64,000 bases of DNA from Gemmatimonadales bacterium (GTDB lineage: Bacteria > Gemmatimonadota > Gemmatimonadetes > Gemmatimonadales > GWC2-71-9): assembly GCA_039794085.1 (NCBI GenBank), contig JBDIWC010000014.1, positions 11,987-75,986 of the forward strand. Direction: 5' to 3'. The translations under genes were made by a program, and so were the position numbers. Below are positions 8,934-21,997 of the stretch, in pieces (position 1 is the first letter of the stretch; each line of letters starts with the position of its first letter). Below the pieces are notes generated by a model. The model was given only the letters and a program-made list of their open reading frames with translations. It made no database searches and had not been told where the DNA came from.

Positions 8934-9047
8934 CGCTTTCTCGTGACGACCCGCCACCGCGGAACGCCTTGGGCCGTCGTCCATGAACCGGACGGGGACG
9001 AGCAACTACTTTTCGTCGTGACCGCTTTCCCCAGGGGTGAGCCATGA
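8934..9047 (+). pseudogene. C-terminal remnant of a DUF4258-like toxin
   Basis: RFLVTTRHRGTPWAVVHEPDGDEQLLFVVTAFP, no start codon, ATGA overlap with next gene. Confidence 0.55.
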
Positions 9048-9313
9048 GTGCCTTCTCTCTTCAGATCACGTATCGCAACGGCAAGCCCTTTGCCGCCTAT
9101 ATCTACCTGGCGCACCGGCCGGCCACGAAAAGCGTTCGCACGGAGCAAGTCGGACCCGAGCTGCTGATCGATTACGCGGCGGATGGTTCTTCCCTCGGGA
9201 TCGAGGTCGTCTCGCCTGGGTTCGTGACCGAAGAGGAGATTAACGTCGCCTTCGAACGCCTTGGTCTCGAACCGCCTTCGAGCGACGAACTCGCCCCGCT
9301 CCGGGCGGCGTAG
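9044..9313 (+). CDS. DUF2283-like putative antitoxin
   Basis: AAYIYL..SVRTEQV..LLIDYAADG..LGIEV pattern. Confidence 0.7.
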   Translation: MSAFSLQITYRNGKPFAAYIYLAHRPATKSVRTEQVGPELLIDYAADGSSLGIEVVSPGFVTEEEINVAFERLGLEPPSSDELAPLRAA

Positions 9314-9825
9314 TCGGTTTTCCCCACTCGCGATCCCACGCGGTGTGTGGCGACGGTTATTGGGGTCGGTGACGCTCCCCCCCCCGAAGAAAACCACTGA
9401 TGACGCAGGTGAATTGACCCCGAAAAGCCTCCGAGGAATCCGAACGCTTTCGCCATCGGGAGCAGCAACCAGGCCGCGAAGACCCCCACCGCGTACAGCA
9501 GCACCGAGAGATAGAACAGGACCCGCATCCACCGGCCAAAGGGATGCGAGACATGGCATACCCCTCCCGGCCGGCAGACCGGGCTCGACGAGCGGAACAG
9601 GATGCGGTAATCCAGGAGGAGGAGGAGTCCCGCGACGCCGAAGGTGATTTCCTTGTGGCGCGAGAGGACCGTGATCCAGGGTGCGGCGGCAACCAGCGAG
9701 GCCATGACCGTCCCCGCGCCGAGCGCCACCAGGGTGATCGGGAGGGCACAGCAGAGCAGCGTGCCCGTCGCCGCGACGGGGGTCACCGCTGCGAGAGCCT
9801 CCCGCCAACCCCGGGGCTGCGGCAT
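9172..9825 (-). CDS. MerT/MerF-like metal transporter; native 3' end apparently lost
   Basis: GTLLCCALP, HKEITF, VCRPGGVC; start ATG overlaps upstream TGA; plausible protein ends near 9425 but frame runs on antisense into DUF2283. Confidence 0.65.
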   Translation of the reverse strand: MPQPRGWREALAAVTPVAATGTLLCCALPITLVALGAGTVMASLVAAAPWITVLSRHKEITFGVAGLLLLLDYRILFRSSSPVCRPGGVCHVSHPFGRWMRVLFYLSVLLYAVGVFAAWLLLPMAKAFGFLGGFSGSIHLRHQWFSSGGGASPTPITVATHRVGSRVGKTDYAARSGASSSLEGGSRPRRSKATLISSSVTNPGETTSIPREEPSAA

Positions 9826-10733
9826 CAGAAGAGCGCCCTCGCCCCGATCGCCGGGCGAACGCCGGCGTTCGGCTGGGCTCCGTTCAGGTTCCGCACGGCG
9901 GGAATCTGCACGCTCCCCTCCACGAGCAGGTTGGAGCGAACCACCCATTGGATTCCGGGGCTGAGCCACGCCTCGTGACCGCCCGAATCGGGAACCGACA
10001 GATCCCGGTCCCGGCTTCGCTCCGTGACCACACCATTCCACTCCAGATAGAACTGAAGCGTGCGGGTCCGGATCGTCTCCACCTCATCCGGTACCCGAAA
10101 CCCGATCGCCACGTCGTAGCGCGTGGCCGCGCCGGCGCGGAACCCGTCGTCGCGGGTCGGGCGACGGTGGCCCACGTCGGCGTTGATTCCCCAGCGTCCC
10201 CGGATCACGGTACCGATCAGCGCCAGGCCCCCCTCAAACGCGCCGCTCCCCCGCTGAGCCGAGCGGGGAAAGGGGGACCCATCCCGCATCCGGGCGTCGG
10301 TGGATCCGGTCGGCAATGAAGCCGATCCCGCGAGGGCCAGACGCGACGTCCCGCCCAGCCGGTCGTGCGACAGCATCGCCCACTTGAGGCCAACGGTCAC
10401 ATCGCCGAGACCCGCGTGCTCATCCCACTCACCGGCGGACACCCGGAGACGCTTGGCGACGACCGGCACGGTGACCGAGGTCGTCACGCGTTGGGTCGGT
10501 GCCCAGGGGAGAAGCACGAACCGGGACACGAGTTGATCCACCGGTCCCCGGCGTTCCCCCATGACCACCAGTCGCACCGCCCGCTGCTCGAAGGCGTTGG
10601 TCAACGCATTCCCGGTGTGGAACGGGAGCCCCTGCGCCGCGAGCCGGCTCGGCACGGCCACCGCCCAGAGGAGGACCAGGGAAAGGATCGTCCGCCTCAT
10701 CCCCCTGGCCAGCCATCGCAACGCCGCCCCCAT
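9825..10733 (-). CDS. Putative outer-membrane 'transporter' (MetA/phenol-pathway-like beta-barrel)
   Basis: Signal peptide, GLGDV, SLPTG, GSG, SPGIQ motifs, C-terminal Phe; start may be 10700. Confidence 0.7.
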   Translation of the reverse strand: MGAALRWLARGMRRTILSLVLLWAVAVPSRLAAQGLPFHTGNALTNAFEQRAVRLVVMGERRGPVDQLVSRFVLLPWAPTQRVTTSVTVPVVAKRLRVSAGEWDEHAGLGDVTVGLKWAMLSHDRLGGTSRLALAGSASLPTGSTDARMRDGSPFPRSAQRGSGAFEGGLALIGTVIRGRWGINADVGHRRPTRDDGFRAGAATRYDVAIGFRVPDEVETIRTRTLQFYLEWNGVVTERSRDRDLSVPDSGGHEAWLSPGIQWVVRSNLLVEGSVQIPAVRNLNGAQPNAGVRPAIGARALF

Positions 10734-11101
10734 CAGGGCCGGCGAACCTCCCGCACGCTGAAGCCGGCCTGCTGCACCTCCCGCTTGAGCTGCGCATCGG
10801 TGAGGACCTGCCCGGTCTTCTCCCGAATCAGCACGAGCCCGTCACTGATCCGGACCAGGACGCTGTCCACCTCCGGGAGCCTGGTGAGCCGTTTCTCGAG
10901 GCCGGCGGCGCAGAACGGGCAGGTCATCCCGTCCAGGCGAAGGAGCACGGTGCTCCCGGCCAGCAACGAATCGGTTCCGGCGACCCTGGGCATCGGGTCG
11001 GTGGGGGCCGTGTGCTGCGCCGCCGCCCCCGGCGGGGCTGCTGCGAGGGCCAGGGCACCGAGGGTGCCCGCGCCGATCAGGGACTTGATGGGAAACCGCA
11101 T
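10733..11101 (-). CDS. Exported HMA-domain protein
   Basis: Signal peptide, DGMTCPFCAAGLEK; GGAGG SD. Confidence 0.85.
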   Translation of the reverse strand: MRFPIKSLIGAGTLGALALAAAPPGAAAQHTAPTDPMPRVAGTDSLLAGSTVLLRLDGMTCPFCAAGLEKRLTRLPEVDSVLVRISDGLVLIREKTGQVLTDAQLKREVQQAGFSVREVRRP

Positions 11102-11166
11102 GGTCCAACCTCCAGTCAGTCGGGGTCCGGGGGCATCCGGCCTGGTGCCGGAATCCCCTCGACAGG

Positions 11167-11197
11167 ATCATAACCTTGGAGTCAGCTACAGGGTCAA
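11167..11197 (-). promoter_or_regulatory. MerR-family (ZntR/CadR-like) promoter/operator
   Basis: TTGACC-19 nt-TATGAT with imperfect dyad ACCCTGTAG..CTCCAAGGT. Confidence 0.8.
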
Positions 11198-11299
11198 GGG
11201 GTCGGCCACGAGGCGAGTCTTATGCTCTCGACGACGCTGCTCCCGGGTGCCTTGGTCTCGCGTAACAGCGCCGCTGCTCGCGTTTTTCGGGTACGGCGC

Positions 11300-11890
11300 T
11301 TCGAGGCGCGCCGGCTTCGGACGGAGCAGGCCTACATCCAGTGAATCCGGCGATTCATCGGGTTTCACGGGCGGCGGCATCCGCGCGAGCTGGGCGTCAC
11401 CGAGATCCAGGCGTTTCTGGTGCACCTGGCGGTGGAGCGGCGGCTGGCGGCCGCCACGGTGGCTCAGGCGCGGGCGGCGGTGACCTTCCTCTACCGGTGG
11501 GTGCTCGATGATCCGATGCCGGAGCTGAGCGGGGTACAGGCGCAGCATCTGGCGGATCTGACGGCGGGAGCGGGCCGAGTGGCGCTGCCCGGGGCGCTGG
11601 GGCGGAAGTATCCATGCGCGGCGGCATCATCTGCACCCGTCGGTGGTGCAGCGGGCGGTGGCGCGGGTAGTCCGGGAAGCGAAGCTGCCCAAGCGGGCGG
11701 GTTGCCATACCTTGCGCCACAGCTTCGCGACTCACCTCCTGGAGAGGGGGGCGGGGCGGACATCCGGGCGGTGCAGGAGCTGTTGGGTCACCGGGATGTC
11801 TCGACGACGGTGCTGTGTACCCATGTGCTGAACCGGGGCGGGCTCGGGGTGCGGAGTCCGGCGGACCTCCTGGATCCGGAGGGTCCTGCA
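11300..11890 (+). pseudogene. intI: Integron integrase remnant, copy 1
   Basis: [87 protein letters not shown]; nonsense codon, frameshifts, internal deletions. Confidence 0.92.
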
Positions 11891-11893
11891 GCC

Positions 11894-11970
11894 TTTACAG
11901 GATTAGGTTGCGGGCGGTACACTCTTTCGGGATTGGGCGGGGTGGGGAGAGACAGATACACAAGTTGGGC
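11894..11970 (+). other. Putative Pc promoter and attI site, copy 1
   Basis: TTTACA-18-TACACT; similarity to copy 2 ends at CACAA-GTT (GTTGGGC 11964-11970). Confidence 0.6.
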
Positions 11971-12130
11971 CGCAAGACCGACCTTGGCTTGCCGGGACCT
12001 CCCTGAGGCATCCTGGATCGGGGTTGCGCTCGTATGGTTTGGGAAGCTGCCCCTCGGCGCGTGGGTGCCAAGGTTCTGGGGGGGACGAGTGGGGTTGCCC
12101 CAGGTCGATCTGCGTGCGAGGTTTCGTCGG

Positions 12131-12367
12131 ATGCCGACCGTTCTCCGGATCGGGCCGTATCGGTTCTTCTTCTTCTCGGGTGATCGCGGTGGACCCGCGC
12201 ACGTTCACGTGGCCCGAGGCGCCGATGAGGCGAAGTTCTGGCTCTCTCCTGTCCGGCTGCACACGAATGGCGGCTTTCGGAGCGTTGAGCTTCGCCGAGT
12301 GACAATTCTGGTCGAGGCGAACGAAGACAAGCTGCTGGAGGGATGGAATGGCTACTTCGGCAAGTGA
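12131..12367 (+). CDS. DUF4160 protein (putative TA component), integron cassette
   Basis: [28 protein letters not shown]. Confidence 0.88.
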
Positions 12368-12674
12368 TACCCGGCAGGCTGCCCTCGCGCAGTCCGTTTC
12401 CGTTACCGAGGACGAGCTGGTCATGGTCCTTCTCGATGGTCGCACCCTGGCGATTCCACTCGCGTGGTACCCGCGTCTCTTACACGGCACGCCGACTGAA
12501 CGAGCCACTTGGCAGCTGATCGGGCGTGGCGTCGGAATCCACTGGCCGGATCTGGACGAGGATATCGCCGTCGCGCACGCTCTCGAGGGCGTACCCTCCG
12601 GCGAAAGCGCCGCATCGCTGCGACGCTGGCTGGAGTCACGGCGAGATGCTGCCCAACAAGGCAATGCAGGCTAA
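12348..12674 (+). CDS. DUF2442 protein (putative TA partner), integron cassette
   Basis: [28 protein letters not shown]; stop lies inside attC. Confidence 0.88.
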
Positions 12675-12734
12675 CGCGGCCCTCCCTCGCTGTGCTCGGT
12701 CGGGTCCTCGCAGCTGATTGCCGAGCCGTTGGGC
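12651..12734 (+). other. attC site (84 bp)
   Basis: GCCCAAC...GTTGGGC boxes with inner imperfect palindrome GGCAATGCAG/CTGATTGCC. Confidence 0.85.
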
Positions 12735-12754
12735 CGTCTGAGGAGAAGCCGCGA

Positions 12755-13840
12755 ATGACGCAGATGACACCCACTCCATTTCCTATCTCTGCTTTGCTGT
12801 TGTCGATGCTGTCGGGTTGCGGCGGAGGCTCCGACAACACGGGTCCGCCGGCGGTTCCATTCAATGTCGTGGTCTCGATGAACGCCACTCTTTCGGCCAA
12901 CGACACACCATCGGACTACACGACGGAGTACCAGGCGATCTACGCCGCCGGCGCTCGCGGTGCGCAGACCGCCGCTCCCTGGAGCAGCCTGAATCCGACC
13001 GGCACCAACTACGATCTGACGATGATCGACAATCCTCTGTTCGGCTTGAACGCTCTGGCCGGATATGGTTTCAGTTCCATCCTGGTCAATCTGCCCGCTG
13101 TGGCGATCACATCGAGAACCATGCCGGCGGACATCGCCGCGCTACCCTTCAATGATGCCATGGTCACAACGCGCTACCGGGCGCTGATCGACCAGGTGAC
13201 TCCCCATTTAAACGCCAGCGTGCAATACGTTTCACTCGGCAATGAAGTCGACACCTACTTGTCCACACACCCGACGGAATGGGCGCAGTACAAGGAACTG
13301 ATCGAAGACGCGCGAACGTATATTCGTTCGTTGAAACCGAACATCAAGGTCGGTGTCACCACGACTTTCGACGGCGCCACGTCCACCCACATCGCCAACG
13401 TGGCCAGCCTGAACGCGAACATGGACGTCGTCATCCTAACCTACTATCCGATCAATTCCAGGACCTTTGTTCCACGCCATCCCTCGACGGTAGACGCGGA
13501 CATGGCCGCCATGATCAACATCGCCGGCGGTAAGCCGCTCGTGGTCCAGGAGTGGGGCTACCCATCGAGCGCCAGCCTCTCCAGCTCGCGGCAGATGCAG
13601 GCCGATTTCATCGCCAACACCTTTTCCTCCTGGAAGCAGCACGGGTCCGGCCGCATTCCCTTCATCAGTTTCTTCAAGCGACGCGAGTGGAATGCCGCTC
13701 ACTGCGAGACTTTGTCCGGCCAGACGGCCGGGCAAAGGTTCTACGAATTCCTCTGCTCGCTCGGGCTGTTGAACAATGATGGGACGCAGAAGACAGCCTA
13801 CCCGATCCTGATCACGGGGATGTCGACCATCGGACAGTAG
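12755..13840 (+). CDS. Lipoprotein with clan GH-A-like glycoside hydrolase domain, integron cassette
   Basis: Lipobox MLSGC; LGNEVD and VVQEWGYPS glutamate motifs; AGGAG SD just after attC; lower GC than host genes. Confidence 0.7.
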   Translation: MTQMTPTPFPISALLLSMLSGCGGGSDNTGPPAVPFNVVVSMNATLSANDTPSDYTTEYQAIYAAGARGAQTAAPWSSLNPTGTNYDLTMIDNPLFGLNALAGYGFSSILVNLPAVAITSRTMPADIAALPFNDAMVTTRYRALIDQVTPHLNASVQYVSLGNEVDTYLSTHPTEWAQYKELIEDARTYIRSLKPNIKVGVTTTFDGATSTHIANVASLNANMDVVILTYYPINSRTFVPRHPSTVDADMAAMINIAGGKPLVVQEWGYPSSASLSSSRQMQADFIANTFSSWKQHGSGRIPFISFFKRREWNAAHCETLSGQTAGQRFYEFLCSLGLLNNDGTQKTAYPILITGMSTIGQ

Positions 13841-13904
13841 AGCTGTGGACGGGATTTGGTGTCAGGCCTTGCAGTGACACATGCTGGGCCAGCAAGGCGC
13901 TGAA

Positions 13905-14310
13905 CACGGGCGGCATCCGCGCGCACTGGGCGTCACCGATGTCCAGGCGTTTCTGGTGCACCTGCCGGTGGAGCGGCGGCTGGCGGCCGCCACGGTGCCC
14001 ACGCGGCATTACCGGGACCGGGAAACGGGGGAGCGGCGCCGGCCTCATCTGCACCCGTCGGTGGTGCAGCGGGCGGTGACGCGGGCAGTGCGGGAAGCGA
14101 AGCTGCCCACGCGGGCGGGTTGCCATACCCTGCGCCACAGCTTCGCGACTCACCTCCTGGAGAGGGGGGCCGGGCGGACATCCGGACGGTGCAGCACCTG
14201 TTGGTCACCGGGATGTCTCGACGACCATGCTCTACACCCATGTGCTGAACCGGGGCGGGCTGGGGGTGCGGAGTCCCGCGGACCTCCTGGATCCGGAGGG
14301 TCCTGCAGCC
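13905..14310 (+). pseudogene. intI: Integron integrase remnant, copy 2
   Basis: HGRHPRALG..FLVHL..AAATV joined to [51 protein letters not shown]; deletion differs from copy 1. Confidence 0.9.
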
Positions 14311-14386
14311 TCTACAGACTAGGTTGCGGGCGGCACACTCTTTCGGGATTGGGCGGGGCGGGGAGAGAGAGAGACACAAGTTATGC
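14311..14386 (+). other. Putative attI site, copy 2
   Basis: Near-copy of 11894-11966 ending CACAA-GTTATGC; GTTATGC is complementary to GCATAAC of the next attC. Confidence 0.6.
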
Positions 14387-14435
14387 CCGCCAACGACCCT
14401 TGCTGTGAACCGAGGCTGGGCAAGGCCACCATCGG

Positions 14436-14464
14436 TTGCCATCTGCCACGTTCCACGTTACACT
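14436..14464 (+). promoter_or_regulatory. Sigma70-type promoter of higBA cassette
   Basis: TTGCCA-17-TACACT, 5 nt before ATG. Confidence 0.7.
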
Positions 14465-14469
14465 TCTGA

Positions 14470-14736
14470 ATGGCGATCGTTGGATTCAGTCACAAAGGCC
14501 TGGAACGCTTCTTCACTCGAGGGACTACCGCGGGAATCCAGAGCAAACACGCCAAACGACTTCGGCTGATTCTCGGGCGGCTCAGCGTGGCGAAGGAGCC
14601 TCGGGACATGGGACTTCCCGGCCTGAATCTCCACCGCCTCAAGGGTGATCGCCAAGGCACGTGGTCCGTACAGGTTAGCGGCAACTGGCGGGTGACCTTT
14701 CAATTCGTTGGGCCGGATGTCACGGACGTGAACTAG
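14470..14736 (+). CDS. higB: HigB/RelE-family toxin
   Basis: [36 protein letters not shown]. Confidence 0.92.
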
Positions 14737-14750
14737 GAGGACTATCACTG

Positions 14751-15047
14751 ATGAAGACTGTACGCATGGAGAACCCGCCGCACCCGGGAGAGGTCCTGCG
14801 TGAGCTCTGCTTGGTGCCCTTGAATCTCAGCGTCACCGATGCGGCCGCGTCCTTGGACGTCAGCCGGAACACGTTGTCCGCCATCCTCAACGGACGGGCT
14901 GGCATCAGCCCTGAGATGGCTGTTCGACTGTCGATCGCGTTCGACACGACTTCCGAGAGCTGGCTGCAACAACAGATGCAGTACGATCTCTGGCATGCCG
15001 AACAATCACGGAAGCGATTGCGAGTCCGGAGACTCGCGGTCGCGTAA
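14751..15047 (+). CDS. higA: HigA antitoxin
   Basis: [34 protein letters not shown]. Confidence 0.93.
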
Positions 15048-15069
15048 GGCCATCTCCTCAGTGCCGGTG

Positions 15070-15146
15070 GCATAACAGGGCGTTGCTGGCCGGCGTGACC
15101 CTCGCTTGCGCTCGGGGCCACGCGGCAGAACGCCGAGCCGTTAGGC
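15070..15146 (+). other. attC site (77 bp)
   Basis: GCATAAC...GTTAGGC boxes, inner GGCGTTGCTG/CAGAACGCC palindrome. Confidence 0.85.
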
Positions 15147-15314
15147 CGCAAATGCGAATCACGGAAGCAGCACTGCTCCATAGCCGTGTGATAGCGACGT
15201 TGTTCGGGATCGGCCGGGCCATCCCGAATGAGATCTCGCCTGCCGAAGCCAGTAGTTTGCGCCCCGGCAGCTAAGTCCTTGCCGCCGAGGGGTTTCGCAT
15301 CCATCTTTGTGGTC

Positions 15315-15370
15315 ATGAAGGTCCGGGACGTTCTCCGACTGCTTGCCGATGATGACCTGCTCTTGATTCA
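15315..15370 (+). pseudogene. HicA-like toxin 5' remnant
   Basis: MKVRDVLRLLADDD resembles HicA N-termini; breaks off at the operator. Confidence 0.45.
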
Positions 15371-15401
15371 ACGAGAACCCTGGAGTACACTCCAAAATCA
15401 A
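15371..15401 (-). promoter_or_regulatory. ZntR-like operator/promoter divergent from the regulator
   Basis: TTGATT-19 nt-TCTCGT with TGGAGT-N2-ACTCCA dyad; weak -10. Confidence 0.65.
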
Positions 15402-15424
15402 GGGACCTTTTTCGGAGCGCACTC

Positions 15425-15817
15425 ATGCGCATCGGAATCCTGGCGGGGGAGGCGGGGGTCACCCCCGACACCATCCGCTACTACGAACGGATCGGGCTTC
15501 TGGCTCCCCCCGAACGGGGTCGGAATCGCTACCGGCACTACGACCACTCCACCCTCGACGACCTCCACTTCATCCGGAAGTCCCAAACGCTTGGTCTCAC
15601 GCTCCATGACATCATGGGGATCCTGGAGATTGCCCGGGGTGGCCGACCGCCCTGCCAGCATGTCCGGTCCCTGGTGGCCGACCGGCTCGGTGAGGTCGAG
15701 CAGAAGCTCTCGGACCTGCGCGCCATGCGGACGACCCTGCGCGGAATCCTCGATCGGCTGGAACGGGTGCCGTCCTCCCCCGAGGGGTGCCGGTGTGCGG
15801 TCATCGAATCGGCCTGA
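15425..15817 (+). CDS. Heavy-metal-responsive MerR-family regulator (ZntR/CadR/CueR group)
   Basis: TIRYYERIGLL HTH, PPCQHV, C-terminal GCRCAVIE. Confidence 0.9.
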   Translation: MRIGILAGEAGVTPDTIRYYERIGLLAPPERGRNRYRHYDHSTLDDLHFIRKSQTLGLTLHDIMGILEIARGGRPPCQHVRSLVADRLGEVEQKLSDLRAMRTTLRGILDRLERVPSSPEGCRCAVIESA

Positions 15818-15912
15818 CGTGAAGCGACCGGTTTCCAGTTGACAGGCGTCGCGAGCGCCGGTTTACTTCCTGTCCATAAAGTCGTCGCAGGTTCCTGTTG
15901 GCCGAGGGGTTT

Positions 15913-16245
15913 ATGCAGCGGTCCCGACTCAGCATCCTGACCAGCCTCGTGCTCATCGCCGCCGTGGCCCTGCCCTACTACGCCCCTCTGACCTGCAGAC
16001 TGCTGGACCGGATGGAGATGCCGATGGACTGTGACGCCCACGGCACGATGTCGATGGTCGGTCCGACGTCCGGCGGAATGGATGTGTGTCAGATCCCCGC
16101 GTGTGGCCTCGCCCACGTCGCGCCCCTGTCCGGCACCACGGCAAGTTCCGTCGTCCCCGAACCCCTGGTCTCTCCCCTTCCGGCCCCGCCGTCCCTCTTC
16201 CAGTCCATCGACCTCGCCCCTCCCGCTCCACCTCCCCAAGCCTGA
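15913..16245 (+). CDS. Small exported Cys/Met-rich protein with Pro-rich C-terminus (CutF/DUF2946-like)
   Basis: Signal-like N-terminus, CQIPAC, ends APPAPPPQA, directly upstream of the TolC gene. Confidence 0.6.
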   Translation: MQRSRLSILTSLVLIAAVALPYYAPLTCRLLDRMEMPMDCDAHGTMSMVGPTSGGMDVCQIPACGLAHVAPLSGTTASSVVPEPLVSPLPAPPSLFQSIDLAPPAPPPQA

Positions 16246-16344
16246 GTCCGCTCTCCGCTGTATGACATAGTGACCCACGCCCGTTGGGGGGCGGGGTCCG
16301 TCTTCCCTTCAGCTTCCCGGCCGATTCCCGGGAGGAGAGGTGAC

Positions 16345-17676
16345 GTGGCAAATATCCTCAGGCCTCGTGTGGCTCCCCCCCTGCACCCGAGGGTCGCGGG
16401 CGGCGGCGCACTGCTCATCGGTCTACTGCTCGCGACTCCCGCCGTGGGACAGACCGGTGTTCCGACCTTCGCCCTCCCCACCGATTCGGCCGGGCGGGCT
16501 TTTGTCCACGACGTCCTGCGCCGCAACGCCGGGTTGTCGGGGGAGTGGAGCAGCGTGGCCGCCGCGGGAAGGCGGATCCGCCCGGCAGGTGCCCTGCCCG
16601 ACCCGGTGCTCCGCGGCGGGGTCCTCTCGCTCCCGAACCCCTCCTTCGACTTTGCAGCCGAAGCGATGACCCAGGTTCCGGTCGGAATCGAACAGCGAAT
16701 TCCCGGATTCGGCAAGCGGGGCGCGCGCACCCAGGTGGCGATCGCCGACAGCACCCATCGGTCGGCCGGAGCCCTGGCGCTGGCGGGTGTTTTGGCCGCG
16801 GAGGCCGCCTCCCGGTTTGTCCAGTTGGCCGAGCGGAGACAGGCCCTCCGGATCCACGACGCCCGGATCGCCCTGGCCCAGGCGGCGGTGACGTCCACCC
16901 AGAGTCGGTACGCCGCGGGCAGCGCGCCCCAGACCGATCCGATCCGGGCGCGGGTCCGTCGGGTTCAGCTGGAAGAGGAAAGGGATGCGCTGGTGGCCGA
17001 GGTGGCGGGAGCCCTGGCGTCGGCCAATGCCCTCCGGGGCACCGGGGACACCCTCGCCACGCCGGCGCGGGTCACCGGCGCGTCGGAAGCGTCCTCCTCC
17101 TGGGAAATACCCGCCGTTGACCTGATTCGCACTCTTCTGACGGAGGGCAACCCGGAGATCAGGACCTCCCGCGCCGACGTGGAGCGGACGGAACGGATCT
17201 CCACCGTGTACCGCCTCGACGCCCGACCCGATTTCACCGTTTCGGTGCAGGAGGGGATCCGGTTCGGCGGTCGGGAGCCGATGCTCACTGCGCTGGTGGG
17301 AGTCTCGATTCCCTTCTGGCAGGGACGGAAGCAGGGCCCCCTGGCCGACGCCGCGGATCTGGAGGTGATCGCGGCACAGGAGCGCCAACGCGACCTCGAA
17401 GCCCGGATCGAGCGGGAGGCACGCGCCCTGGTCGCGCGTCTCGAGGCGCTTCAGCGGCGCATCCGGCGGGTGGAGGAGGAGCTGCTCCCTCTGGCGCGGG
17501 CGGCGAGCATCTCCGCCCTGCAGCAGTACCGGATCGGCGGCACGGACATCACGGCGGTTCTTGCGGCTCAGGACGACGCCTGGCGGGCCGAGTTGCAGCT
17601 CAATACCCTGGTGGCGGACTACTTCGCGGGGCGGGCCCGCCTCGCGTATCTGCTCGGAGAGGAGTGGTACCAATGA
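16345..17676 (+). CDS. TolC-family outer-membrane factor (CusC-like)
   Basis: ALPDPVL, EQRIPGFGKR, RPDF, GVSIPFW motifs; GTG after GGAGG. Confidence 0.88.
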   Translation: MANILRPRVAPPLHPRVAGGGALLIGLLLATPAVGQTGVPTFALPTDSAGRAFVHDVLRRNAGLSGEWSSVAAAGRRIRPAGALPDPVLRGGVLSLPNPSFDFAAEAMTQVPVGIEQRIPGFGKRGARTQVAIADSTHRSAGALALAGVLAAEAASRFVQLAERRQALRIHDARIALAQAAVTSTQSRYAAGSAPQTDPIRARVRRVQLEEERDALVAEVAGALASANALRGTGDTLATPARVTGASEASSSWEIPAVDLIRTLLTEGNPEIRTSRADVERTERISTVYRLDARPDFTVSVQEGIRFGGREPMLTALVGVSIPFWQGRKQGPLADAADLEVIAAQERQRDLEARIEREARALVARLEALQRRIRRVEEELLPLARAASISALQQYRIGGTDITAVLAAQDDAWRAELQLNTLVADYFAGRARLAYLLGEEWYQ

Positions 17677-18875
17677 ATACGCAAATCCTTCGGGCCGGAT
17701 TGTTCGGCCTCGCGATACTCGCCGCATGTGGCGGCCAAGGCCCGGAATCGGCGACCCCTTCCACACAGGCCGAGGGCATGGAAGGGATGCCGGGGATGGA
17801 GGGGATGCCGGGAATGGAGGGCATGCCGGGGATGGCCGGCGCGGGAGACAGCGTGCTCCGGATCACCCCGGCCGCGGCAGCGCGATCCGGACTCCTGTAT
17901 GCCGTGGCCCGGGAGGGTCCTGCGGTAACCACGGTGCGGGCGTCGGCCCAGGTGGTGCCCAATGAGCGCGGGCTGACGGAAGTGAATGCCCGGATGCCCG
18001 GCTGGGTTGAGCGGCTGTGGGTCAACGAGACCGGGCGCTTCGTGCGGCGGGGGGATTCCCTCCTCGCCCTCTATGCCCCGGCGCTGCTCGCGGCCCAGGA
18101 GGAGTTGCTCCTGGCCCGAACCCTGGCGGCCACGCCCGACGGGGCCACCCTGGTGGCCGACGCGCGGCGACGATTGGAACTGTGGAACGTGTCGCCGGAG
18201 GAGATCGCGGCCATCGAGCGGGAGGGAGTGCCCCGCCGGCGGGTGACTGTGTTGGCGCCCCACGCGGGACATGTGATCGCCAAGCGGGTGGTGGAAGGGG
18301 AGATGGTGGAGGCGGGAGAGCCGCTGTTCCGCCTGGCGGATCTCTCGACCGTCTGGATCGAACCGGCGATCTACGAGCAGGATCTCGCCGCCATCCGGGT
18401 CGGCCAGGAGGCCACCGTGGAGGTACAGGCCTATCCCGGTCTGGCCCTCACCGGCCGGGTGAGTTTCATCCAGCCCACCCTCGACTCGATCACGCGAACC
18501 GTCCGGGTGCGGGTGGAAGTCCCCAATCCGGATCATCGGCTCAAGCCGGCCATGTTCGCCACGGTCTCCTTCCGGGTGGAGGGTCCCCGGGGGGTGCTCG
18601 TGCCGCTCGCCGCCGTTCTCCCCACGGGCACGCGGAACCTGGCGTTCGTGGTGCGCGATGGCGGCCTCCGGCCGGTGGAGGTCCGCGTCGGTCTCCGCGG
18701 CGACACGGAGGTGCTCGTCACCCACGGACTGGCCCCGGGTGACACCGTGGTGGCGCGGGCCACCTTCCTGCTCGACTCCGAGTCCAGTCTCGCGGCCGCG
18801 ATGCGGGGGATCATGCTGAACATGGGGATGGGCCTCGACATGGGAGGGATGCAGATGGAGGGCAAGACCCCATGA
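17673..18875 (+). CDS. cusB: RND periplasmic adaptor, CusB-like lipoprotein
   Basis: Lipobox LAAC, GMEGMP repeats, LFRLADLSTVW, LKPAMF, FLLDSES. Confidence 0.9.
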   Translation: MNTQILRAGLFGLAILAACGGQGPESATPSTQAEGMEGMPGMEGMPGMEGMPGMAGAGDSVLRITPAAAARSGLLYAVAREGPAVTTVRASAQVVPNERGLTEVNARMPGWVERLWVNETGRFVRRGDSLLALYAPALLAAQEELLLARTLAATPDGATLVADARRRLELWNVSPEEIAAIEREGVPRRRVTVLAPHAGHVIAKRVVEGEMVEAGEPLFRLADLSTVWIEPAIYEQDLAAIRVGQEATVEVQAYPGLALTGRVSFIQPTLDSITRTVRVRVEVPNPDHRLKPAMFATVSFRVEGPRGVLVPLAAVLPTGTRNLAFVVRDGGLRPVEVRVGLRGDTEVLVTHGLAPGDTVVARATFLLDSESSLAAAMRGIMLNMGMGLDMGGMQMEGKTP

Positions 18876-21800
18876 TCGCCTGGCTCATCGCGTGGTCGCT
18901 TCGGCGGCGCGTGCTGGTCCTCACCGTGACGGTCGCCGGGCTGATCGCCGGGGGCTGGTGGGCGCGGTCCACGCCCATCGACGCGATCCCCGATCTGTCC
19001 GACACCCAGGTGATCGTGTTCACCGAGTATCCCGGTCAGGCGCCCCAGGTGGTCGAGGATGCGGTAACCTATCCGTTAGTTCGTGCCCTGCTGGCAGTGC
19101 CGAAGGCCCGGGTGGTGCGGGGCCAGTCCCTGTTCGGCACCTCCTTCATCTACATCCTGTTCGAGGAGGGGACCGATCTGTACTGGGCCCGCAGCCGAGT
19201 CACCGAGGCCCTGCCCGCCGCCATCGACGGCCTTCCGGACGGCGTGCGCCCGCAACTGGGCCCGGACGCCACCGGTGTGGGGTGGGTCTTCCAGTATGCC
19301 GTGGAGGGAGAGGGGTATTCCCTCGACCAGCTCCGGTCGCTGCAGGACTGGGACATCCGGTTCGGCCTGCAGAGTGTGCCGGGAGTCGCCGAGGTCGCGA
19401 GCATCGGCGGGTTCGTCAAGCAGTATCAGGTCGTGCTCGATCCGGCCCGTCTCCTGGCGTCCGGCGTGACCTCGGATCGGATCATCCAGGTTCTCCGCGA
19501 ATCGAACACCGACGTGGGGGCCCGGACACTGGAGATCGGGGGGGGGGACTACATGATCCGGGGCCGGGGCTACCTCACCGGCGTATCCTCGATCGCCGGA
19601 CTCGTGGTAGCCACGGGTGCCGGGGGCGTCCCGGTCCGCATCGGCGACGTGGCGGACGTGACCATCGGCCCCGACCTCCGGCTCGGCATCGCGGAGCGGG
19701 ACGGCCGGGGCGAAGCCGTGGGCGGCGTGGTGATAATGCGGCAGGGTGAGAACGCCCTGCGAGTGATCACCGACGTGAAGGAGCGGATCGCCGAACTCCA
19801 GGCGGGCCTCCCTCCGGGGGTGCGGATCGTGCCGACCTACGACCGTTCCACGCTGATCCGGAGCGCGGTGAGCACCCTCCGGTGGACGCTGATCGAGGAA
19901 TCGCTCATCGTGGCGGCGGTCTGCTTTCTCTTCCTGCTCCATGCCCGGAGCGCCCTCGTCGCCATCGCCGTTCTCCCGCTCGGCATCCTGCTCGCCCTGG
20001 CCGCGATGCGCGTGGCCGGGGTGAACGCCAACATCATGTCGCTCGGCGGGCTGGCCATCGCCATCGGCGCCATGATCGATGCGGCCATCGTCATGATCGA
20101 GAACTTTCACAAGCACCGGGAACGCGCGCCGGAGGATGACCGGTGGGATGTGGTGCTCCGGGCCACCCGCGAGGTGGGGCCGGCGCTGTTCGTCTCCCTC
20201 CTCATCATCACCCTCTCCTTCCTGCCGCTTTTCGCGCTGCAGGCCGAGGAGGGCCGCCTCTTCCGGCCGCTGGCTCTCACCAAGACATTCGCGATGGCGG
20301 CCGCCGCCCTCCTCTCCGTCACCGTGGTCCCCGTCCTCATGGGGCTCTTCCTCACCGGGCGCACCCGTCCGGAGGAGGCCAATCCCGTGAACCGCTGGAC
20401 CATCCGTCTCTACCGACCGGTGCTGCGATGGGCCCTGCGGAACCGGGTGCTGGTGCTGGCCGGTACGCTGGCCGTGCTGGGCGCCACACTCTGGCCCCTG
20501 CGGCGTCTGGGCACCGAGTTCATGCCGCCACTGGAGGAGGGTACGCTGATGTACATGCCGAACTCGATTCCGGGTCTCTCGATCGCCCGGCAGCGGGAAC
20601 TTCTGCAACGGCAGGACAGCATCCTCATGTCGTTCCCCGAGGTCGCCTCGGTGTGGGGGAAGGCGGGCCGGGCACGCACGGCCACCGACCCGGCACCCAT
20701 CTCCATGGTGGAAACCATCGTCACCCTCACGGACCGTGCCACCTGGCCGGCGCCACTCTCCCAGGACGCCCTGATCGCCAAGCTCGACCGGGCGATGCGG
20801 TTTCCCGGCCTGGTGAACAGTTGGACCATGCCGATCAAGAACCGCACCGACATGCTCTCGACCGGCATCCGGACCTCCCTCGGCATCAAGATCTTCGGGC
20901 CCGATCTTCGCACGATCGAGTCGATCGGTGCGGACATCGAGCGCCGCCTGTCGTCACTGGCCGGCACCGCCAGCATCTTTGCCGAGCGGTCCTTCGGCGG
21001 ACGATACCTCGACGTCCAGTTGGATCGCGAGGCGATCGCCCGCCACGGTCTCACCACGGGCGCGGTACAGCGGGTGCTCGCCTCGGCCGTCGGGGGTGCC
21101 AACGTGACCTGGACTGTCGAGGGGCGGGAGCAATACCCCGTTCAGGTGCGTTTCGGGCGCGAGACGCGGGACGACCCCACCCGACTGGGGGGCATACTCA
21201 TCGGAACCCCGACGGGCCCCCAGATCCCGCTTCATCAACTGGCACACTTCACGTTCACGGACGGCGCTCCGATGATCCGGAGCGAGGACGGGCATCCGAC
21301 CGGGACGGTGTTCATCGACGTGCGCGGCCGGGACGTGGGGAGCTACGTGGAGGAGGCCCGATCCCTGCTCGAGCGCGACCTGACTCTGCCAGCCGGCTAC
21401 CGGCTTGCCTGGAGTGGTCAGTACGAGGCGCTGGAGAGGGTCACGGCGCGGCTCGCCCTCGTCGTCCCCGTGACGCTCGCGATCATCGCGCTGCTGCTCC
21501 ATCTCAATTTCCGGAACCCGGTTGAGGTGGCCATCGTGCTGGCCTCCCTGCCGTTCGCCCTGGTGGGCGGCATCTGGCTGCTCTGGATGCTCGACTACCA
21601 CCTTTCGGTGGCGGTCGCCGCAGGATTCATCGCCCTGGCCGGGCTCGCCACCCAGACCGGCGTGGTGATGCTCCTCTACCTCGATCACGCCTGGCGGGAG
21701 GCGGGTCCCGGCGGTCCCGCAACCCCCGAGGCCCTCCATGCGGCGGTGGAGGCCGGGGCCGTCCAGCGGGTCCGGCCCAAGGTGATGACCGTGGTGGCCA

Positions 21801-21997
21801 TCATGGCCGGACTGCTGCCCCTGATGTGGACCCACGGGAGCGGTGCGTCGGTGATGCAGCGGATCGCGGCCCCGATGCTCGGCGGCATGGTGTCGTCGAC
21901 GATCCTGACCCTCGTGGTCATCCCGGTGTTGTATGAGATCTGGCAGGGGAGACGTCTGGCCTCGACCCCGGCGCCGGGGAACACTCAGGTGGGGTGA
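18872..21997 (+). CDS. cusA: CusA/CzcA-family Cu/Ag efflux RND permease
   Basis: DAIPDLSDTQVI, LGPDATGVGW, GTEFMP, DPAPISMVET, RTDMLSTGI, RVRPKVMT. Confidence 0.95.
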   Translation: MIAWLIAWSLRRRVLVLTVTVAGLIAGGWWARSTPIDAIPDLSDTQVIVFTEYPGQAPQVVEDAVTYPLVRALLAVPKARVVRGQSLFGTSFIYILFEEGTDLYWARSRVTEALPAAIDGLPDGVRPQLGPDATGVGWVFQYAVEGEGYSLDQLRSLQDWDIRFGLQSVPGVAEVASIGGFVKQYQVVLDPARLLASGVTSDRIIQVLRESNTDVGARTLEIGGGDYMIRGRGYLTGVSSIAGLVVATGAGGVPVRIGDVADVTIGPDLRLGIAERDGRGEAVGGVVIMRQGENALRVITDVKERIAELQAGLPPGVRIVPTYDRSTLIRSAVSTLRWTLIEESLIVAAVCFLFLLHARSALVAIAVLPLGILLALAAMRVAGVNANIMSLGGLAIAIGAMIDAAIVMIENFHKHRERAPEDDRWDVVLRATREVGPALFVSLLIITLSFLPLFALQAEEGRLFRPLALTKTFAMAAAALLSVTVVPVLMGLFLTGRTRPEEANPVNRWTIRLYRPVLRWALRNRVLVLAGTLAVLGATLWPLRRLGTEFMPPLEEGTLMYMPNSIPGLSIARQRELLQRQDSILMSFPEVASVWGKAGRARTATDPAPISMVETIVTLTDRATWPAPLSQDALIAKLDRAMRFPGLVNSWTMPIKNRTDMLSTGIRTSLGIKIFGPDLRTIESIGADIERRLSSLAGTASIFAERSFGGRYLDVQLDREAIARHGLTTGAVQRVLASAVGGANVTWTVEGREQYPVQVRFGRETRDDPTRLGGILIGTPTGPQIPLHQLAHFTFTDGAPMIRSEDGHPTGTVFIDVRGRDVGSYVEEARSLLERDLTLPAGYRLAWSGQYEALERVTARLALVVPVTLAIIALLLHLNFRNPVEVAIVLASLPFALVGGIWLLWMLDYHLSVAVAAGFIALAGLATQTGVVMLLYLDHAWREAGPGGPATPEALHAAVEAGAVQRVRPKVMTVVAIMAGLLPLMWTHGSGASVMQRIAAPMLGGMVSSTILTLVVIPVLYEIWQGRRLASTPAPGNTQVG

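Follow-up and report, generated by a model that had tools for sequence, protein, structure and literature searches.

How two broken integron integrase genes (intI) came to lie in tandem, each still followed by an attachment site and gene cassettes, and whether such cassettes can still be exchanged, is the question raised by positions 11,300 to 15,146 of a 64,000-nt stretch (the window) of contig JBDIWC010000014.1 from a Gemmatimonadales bacterium. The genome carrying the window (GCA_039794085.1, here G000) is assembled into 115 contigs and is 94.7% complete. An earlier note, made from the sequence alone, had read the locus as non-autonomous platforms of an intI stub, a cassette promoter (Pc) and an integron attachment site (attI), served in trans, each having captured a toxin-antitoxin (TA) cassette first. 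According to our analysis, these platforms probably go back to a chromosomal integron of the inverted group and are decayed copies of it, in which intI is dead, the attI, a predicted Pc and cassettes remain, and the cassettes are likely still exchanged now and then by an outside integrase.

All features of the locus lie on the plus strand. The first intI remnant (type A; 11318-11873) has two internal deletions, a TGA codon at 11342-11344 and a 5-nt insertion near 11745; the second (type A; 13905-14290) has one large deletion, a 5-nt insertion near 14163 and a 1-nt deletion near 14202. The stub fragments match Pfam Phage_integrase or Phage_int_SAM_4, and the integron integrase model TIGR02249 was the best NCBIfam match of the two fragments scanned (E 7.8e-21 and 3.6e-9), below the cut-off. 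Against the 324-aa intact IntI of a congener (G001), the aligned parts of stub 1 correspond roughly to codons 23-82, 186-215 and 239-322 and those of stub 2 roughly to codons 42-69 and 226-322, which confirmed that the two remnants have different internal deletions. The middle of the catalytic domain is gone from both, and the catalytic Tyr codon of stub 1 has changed to Cys. With deletions and a frameshift in both copies and a stop in stub 1, neither qualifies as a full-length functional intI. The two copies appear as paired repeats approximately 2.4 kb apart (11373-11461/13909-13997, 94%; 11618-11786/14036-14204, 93%; 11786-11900/14203-14317, 93%; 11901-11971/14317-14387, 90%). The 5-nt insertion is common to both window stubs and was found neither in the third type A copy of the genome nor in intact genes, so both stubs derive from one already broken copy. 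Judged from this shared lesion, a dead platform was copied, and the frameshift predates the copying.

Behind each stub comes a tail of 94-95 nt with CACAAG/TT at its end, the slash marking the crossover (11964/11965 and 14380/14381). The sequence CACAAGTT begins at 11959 and 14375, and the first base after GTT is unlike between the copies; thus, the reported common tail, with similarity that stops at CACAA-GTT, was borne out. The note had proposed, as a check, that other copies of the tail should diverge at the GTT, and all nine tails in the genome lose similarity there, one of them (on contig C18) with GCT in place of GTT. From these similarity ends, and from a cassette switch in another population described below, we read the two sites as attI sites with a crossover at G/TT: copy 1 at 11924-11970 and copy 2 at 14340-14386, both with an approximate left boundary. 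Upstream of attI copy 1, a promoter scan called a sigma-70-like site, TTTACA-18-TACACT (11894-11923); the scan gave 2 sites against 0.8 expected, which is weak alone. Of 11 aligned tails, a pattern placed the hexamers at the same position in 10 and missed the tail on contig C22. On this consensus match and shared position, the site is the predicted promoter (Pc) for the cassettes. The corresponding position in copy 2 (TCTACA-17-CACACT, 14311-14339) was uncalled by the scan and has drifted, both hexamers being one step further off the consensus.

The three cassettes behind these sites begin with cassette 1 (11964-12727), which holds a DUF4160 gene (12131-12367) and a DUF2442 gene (12348-12674), by domain match the dhiTA-type TA pair (PMC8198452, Table 1), and has a complete attC (12651-12734; GCCCAAC ... 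GTTGGGC; 38 bits). Cassette 2 (12728-13912) holds a 361-aa glycoside-hydrolase-like gene (12755-13840) with a weak GH53/GH42 match. Of this cassette's attC, the left arm remains (13887-13912) and the rest is gone; the arm runs into stub 2 through a 9-nt microhomology, CACGGGCGG, and no attC model match was obtained there. Cassette 3 (14380-15139) carries higB (14470-14736) and higA (14751-15047), a promoter-like site from the promoter scan (14436-14464) and a complete attC (15070-15146; GCATAAC ... GTTAGGC; 41.2 bits). It is followed by the truncated start of a fourth, hicA-hicB-like cassette (15140-15354), the full form of which is on contig C22.

The start of each first cassette was said to match the inverse core of its own attC, and this held in both (GTTGGGC/GCCCAAC and GTTATGC/GCATAAC). 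The attC sites were scored with a covariance model of our own, which is not that of IntegronFinder; it was built from 24 sites of relatives picked by a heuristic, with no sites from G000, and 97.4% of the cells in its alignment are paired, with covariation present. Both complete sites scored, as the note's proposed check demanded, and ranked at the top of the window (41.2 bits, E 1.5e-7; 38 bits, E 8e-7), the next match reaching 11.8 bits. They have paired R and L boxes with extrahelical bases, and the right-hand spacer is mostly 8 nt in the lineage. Free folding (z = -1.14 and -2.26) is weak evidence.

The cassettes are, by comparison between genomes and populations, discrete mobile units: a 95% copy of cassette 1 lies mid-array in congener G001 with exact borders, starting at the base corresponding to 11964, and the cassette also occurs in the other population (P2), in which cassette 2 follows a different attC. 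Cassette 2 was not found in G001 or in G002. The higB gene of cassette 3 has a premature stop, five codons early, and three cluster mates end in YEDYH. The earlier note mentions neither this stop nor cassette 2 with its cut attC nor the truncated hicA cassette. In the available text on HigB of P. vulgaris, Asp90, Tyr91 and His92 are crucial to its activity (PMC5027501); with the last five residues, including Asp-Tyr-His, lost, the higBA pair is likely no longer toxic. A TA cassette in first place is not a rule of these platforms, since first cassettes are TA pairs at three of the nine attI sites in the genome, the others being a TIR protein, a globin, a DUF4177 protein and unknowns. TA pairs are listed among the commonest cassette functions in the portion available of PMC8618304.

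Contigs of P2 (runs X5 and X6) show what has happened behind a dead stub. They contain 12728-13912 and 13909-14383 at approximately 98% identity, with the same internal deletion in stub 2, yet a different attC precedes 12728 and a different cassette, starting with GTTAGGC, follows 14383. P2 also keeps about 97 nt more at the junction between attC and stub 2; in the window these were deleted between the two occurrences of the repeat CACGGGCGG. A change of first cassette at the crossover behind a dead stub indicates that an integrase acted in trans, unless the exchange came about by homologous recombination with a near-identical tail. Hence, the proposed service in trans gains support from the finding of one dead stub with a first cassette that depends on the population, and it lacks an intact intI in the assembly. 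The depth of the P2 contigs (58-60) is merely similar to that of contigs with flanks matching G001 arrays (52-64). The type A tail gave no matches in two exact-pattern scans of metagenome contigs and was present in one of five genomes tested, G001 not being that one. A clean origin of stub 2 by recombination between an attC and a secondary site was tried and rejected: at most 42 nt separate the inverse core from intI even in the longer P2 form, against 61 nt for the shortest complete attC in these arrays.

The window stubs are part of a larger set. By tblastn, G000 contains at least 12 intI remnants, and every stub has its own deletions. The deletions spared the 3' platform in 9 of the 12, and the tails of these nine fall into three sequence types: A (the two in the window, one on C11 and one on C8), B (one on C22 and three on C8) and C (one on C18). 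The attC model found 15 sites genome-wide, mostly 3' of stubs. The suggested search for more tails and an intact intI therefore succeeded in its first half, with nine tail-bearing remnants, and failed in its second. With 18 matches to TIGR02249, G000 is second of 121 genomes, the first having 7% contamination; 67 of the 121 have a match over the cut-off, and Xer genes add several matches per genome.

Several of the other loci deserve description. The type B integron at C22:56900-60500 (L145) is near-complete but broken and carries parDE-like and hicAB cassettes; upstream of it are a REP-associated-transposase-like gene (by eye) and another decayed intI 3' fragment. Beside recA, C8:29100-39600 (L141) has four attI-tailed stubs (one A, three B) within 9 kb, interleaved with cassettes, one of them a TIR-domain gene. 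The type C attI at C18:58560-58770 (L144) has the GCT crossover, unlike the GTT crossover of the intact type C integron in G001, and its globin first cassette ends in a matching inverse core, GCCAGCTAAC. At C11:35900-39100 (L143), four predicted exported-protein genes (CsgG/TolB-like by eye) lie between two intI halves, and the cluster adjoins an IS-like fragment. Heavily deleted intI stubs also occur in relatives (L128, L129 and L130 in G027; L122 and L123 in G001; L152 in G178; L166 in G187; L178 in G002), and several of these keep intact-looking tails ending in GTT.

The position of attI 3' of a co-oriented intI had been presented as a departure from the integron norm. It is instead the layout of a published group of inverted integrases, according to the available parts of PMC4889954, PMC3607928 and PMC3575428, and it is also found with intact intI of the same genus. 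G001 has two intact intI with type B and type C tails directly 3', and in G063 (L216) an intact intI is followed by a tail of type-A-like sequence that ends in TACACAA. From the family, 29 loci were chosen by the intI 3' end, of which 20 are full length, 8 are broken and 1 is cut by a contig end. The window stubs are too short for a tree, and L175, with a type-A-like tail, and C22 were used as stand-ins. One clade of the IntI tree, comprising 42 rows and supported by an SH-aLRT of 96, unites Treponema, Synechococcus, Coriobacteriia, Acidobacteria, two named Gemmatimonadota and all the relatives. Within this clade, 21 of 21 scorable rows are co-oriented (19 rows have no scorable array and 2 are unlabelled), whereas of the 23 scorable rows elsewhere in the tree, 22 are divergent and one is co-oriented. 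Excerpts of the literature describe Spirochaetota IntIs as reverse-oriented (PMC9668308) and list Gemmatimonadota among integron hosts (PMC8618304). By these alignments and the tree, the order intI, Pc position, attI, cassettes is the usual one in intact integrons of the lineage.

A process consistent with these observations can be outlined. The dead platform may have been copied into the array by the copy-and-paste activity of IntI, which the available text of PMC8024014 treats as normal in IntI recombination, or by ordinary duplication. Deletions afterwards would have trimmed intI and the upstream attC. The cassettes would then have been changed by the intact IntI of another integron, resident but unassembled, recently lost or incoming; in the portion available of PMC12901181, there is a precedent for a dead intI with service in trans. 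According to the same portion, IntI1 excises and inserts attC-gene-attI units, and attI-gene-attI is excised at 100%. Because of this complete excision, the survival of two attI in direct repeat suggests that there is little IntI activity now, or that the repeats are protected by the addiction cassette, dhiTA, that separates them and may keep them from collapsing. The overall picture, as we reconstruct it, is one of turnover and decay of several integrons.

Several points weigh against this picture. No intact intI was found in the G000 assembly by tblastn; the best remnant, on C22, is 93-98% identical to an intact G001 gene, but some 24 codons are missing from it and its 3' part is frameshifted. 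The different first cassette comes from one study, P2, and from contigs only, and homologous recombination with a near-identical tail could yield it. The ratio of nonsynonymous to synonymous changes (dN/dS) is 0.49 for the stub pair and 0.16 for a pair of intact genes, which is no more than suggestive: with 18 changes, the former is confidently distinct from neither 1 nor 0.2. The IntI tree is a quick IQ-TREE result of 104 rows, loci whose matches were short or that contained internal stops having been excluded. L012-L039 had about 0.8 kb upstream, so that upstream arrays could go undetected in them; none was seen in 10 named clade loci with more than 5 kb upstream. Finally, Xanthomonas strains that share an intI lesion usually have identical arrays, according to the part available of bioRxiv 10.1101/2025.06.18.660453, and trans service is therefore not the default.

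A different explanation, in line with the Xanthomonas precedent, is that the arrays have been static since intI died and the populations differ by homologous recombination or deletion. The missing intact intI fits it, as do the signs of ongoing decay, namely the higB stop, the truncated hicA cassette, the approximately 97 nt lost beyond the state in P2, and the degraded Pc of copy 2. Against it stands the crossover, where P2 is approximately 98% identical up to GTTA and then continues with a core-like GTTAGGC sequence; a simple loss of higBA fails as an explanation, since the P2 sequence after GTTA is unlike the next cassette of the window. We consider static arrays improbable. Still less credible is that the stubs arose when repeats of intI were wrongly joined during assembly of a metagenome bin. 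The number of contigs in G000, the absence of any listed piece spanning the whole stretch, and an unbridged segment (11657-11864 among the rows shown) would allow it. However, contigs from X1/X2, runs that may be the source, span the stub 1 deletions, the junction of attI copy 1 with cassette 1, the junction of cassette 2 with stub 2 and that of attI copy 2 with higBA, all with 0 differences. The second study has stub 2 with the same internal deletion, which largely refutes an artefact for this stub, and the genes neighbouring the integron block are intact.

A further alternative would turn the stub into part of a mobile unit. Here the glycoside-hydrolase cassette, its broken attC, the stub, Pc and attI would be excised by recombination of the upstream attC with the unit's own attI and re-enter at another attC, carrying a fresh promoter and a docking site into arrays. 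Both borders of 12728-14383 differ between P2 and the window exactly at GTT crossovers, although each border could change independently by ordinary cassette moves, and there is just one such unit in two contexts, with no circle observed. By eye, stubs w2, C11a and C8d lie directly against left arms of attC sites, and a TAAC lies within 70 nt upstream of 3 of 12 remnants (w1, C11a and C8d; by eye) against 0.019 expected per 70 nt (P ~0.001, post hoc), a test that is biased, since stubs in arrays are expected near attC anyway. That a dead platform was copied is in line with the idea, as are the excision and insertion of attC-gene-delta-attI units by IntI1 and the normality of copy-and-paste in the available parts of PMC12901181 and PMC8024014. 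On the other hand, the other stubs have unrelated deletions, and the tails are no more conserved than the stubs. We regard a mobile unit of this kind as unlikely, and it is equally doubtful that dead intI-Pc-attI stubs, joined to a cassette with an attC short of its right arm, act as portable modules of promoter and docking site that hop from one attC to another as attI-terminated cassettes with IntI in trans and seed new points of expression and insertion within chromosomal arrays.

The conservation of the tails also bears on whether the platform is maintained as such. Conservation of the tail beyond that of the stub, a sign of selection, was not seen in the window pair (tail identity 93.6%, stub identity 92.8%) nor in the type B copies, which against the intact gene have 87.7-90.7% in the tails and 88.7-95.3% in the stubs. 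Since tails diverge like stubs, the Pc of copy 2 has drifted, the deletions are non-uniform and the cassettes decay, a maintained non-autonomous element is not supported by these comparisons. What stands of the proposed platforms is the existence of units of stub, Pc-like site and attI with true cassettes; their status as a dedicated, maintained element does not.

The integron block is flanked by a heavy-metal-binding gene (10733-11101, minus strand) and merR (15425-15817). The former has a MerR-type promoter with a long spacer (11167-11197), and a similar operator-like sequence lies at approximately 15371-15408 at merR. In the relative locus L202, the HMA gene is directly beside merR, and from this adjacency the block looks like an insertion in a metal-resistance island. 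At 16270-21997, the open reading frame list shows genes that by eye look like a TolC, CusB and CusA heavy-metal efflux operon. Just 5' of stub 1, a 16-nt match to the intI 3' motif (11226-11241) and a sequence that starts with TAAC and resembles the left arm of an attC (11257-11285) are possibly traces of a third, older unit. An Rfam scan of 9000-18000 gave no match.

As decayed inverted-group copies, these platforms offer a natural case of a dead integron that was copied and whose first cassette still changed, which argues that intI pseudogenes need not mean frozen arrays. If the stubs did travel with attI as mobile units, arrays could acquire promoters in their interior and second points of entry, with a bearing on the expression of distal cassettes and the origin of dispersed arrays.

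The layout itself is already known, and inverted-group integrons are here documented across a family, probably of Gemmatimonadota by its placement in the IntI tree. In the partial, mostly open-access literature searched, no paper was found on multiple internal platforms of intI stub and attI in a chromosomal integron. Among the nearest known systems is the inverted integron-integrase group of the Treponema denticola type, since the IntIs of the relatives and the broken IntI of C22 fall in one clade with Treponema and Synechococcus; the group is paraphyletic in the data set of Cury 2016. The present case differs in that intI is dead and the platform exists in many copies, dispersed and in tandem. 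Integrons with an inactivated intI (Xanthomonas, and class 2 with the intI2 stop codon) and trans-mobilised CALINs likewise combine a broken intI with a persisting array and, in the sources as available, trans mobilisation that is proposed or shown. Those same sources describe mostly one locus in Xanthomonas, where arrays freeze, whereas here there are nine attI-bearing platforms of three types, one with a change of first cassette after the death of intI. The TA cassettes of chromosomal integrons (dhiTA, higBA, hicAB, parDE) are of the same pair types as those found here, where higB is without its last five residues. Finally, the delta-attI or attI-type cassettes of class 1 and class 2 integrons, as far as described in the text available of PMC12901181, likewise have a gene with an upstream attC and use a downstream attI in place of their own attC; the putative mobile unit described here differs in having a whole attI, a promoter position and approximately 390 nt of intI, and in lying in a chromosomal array.

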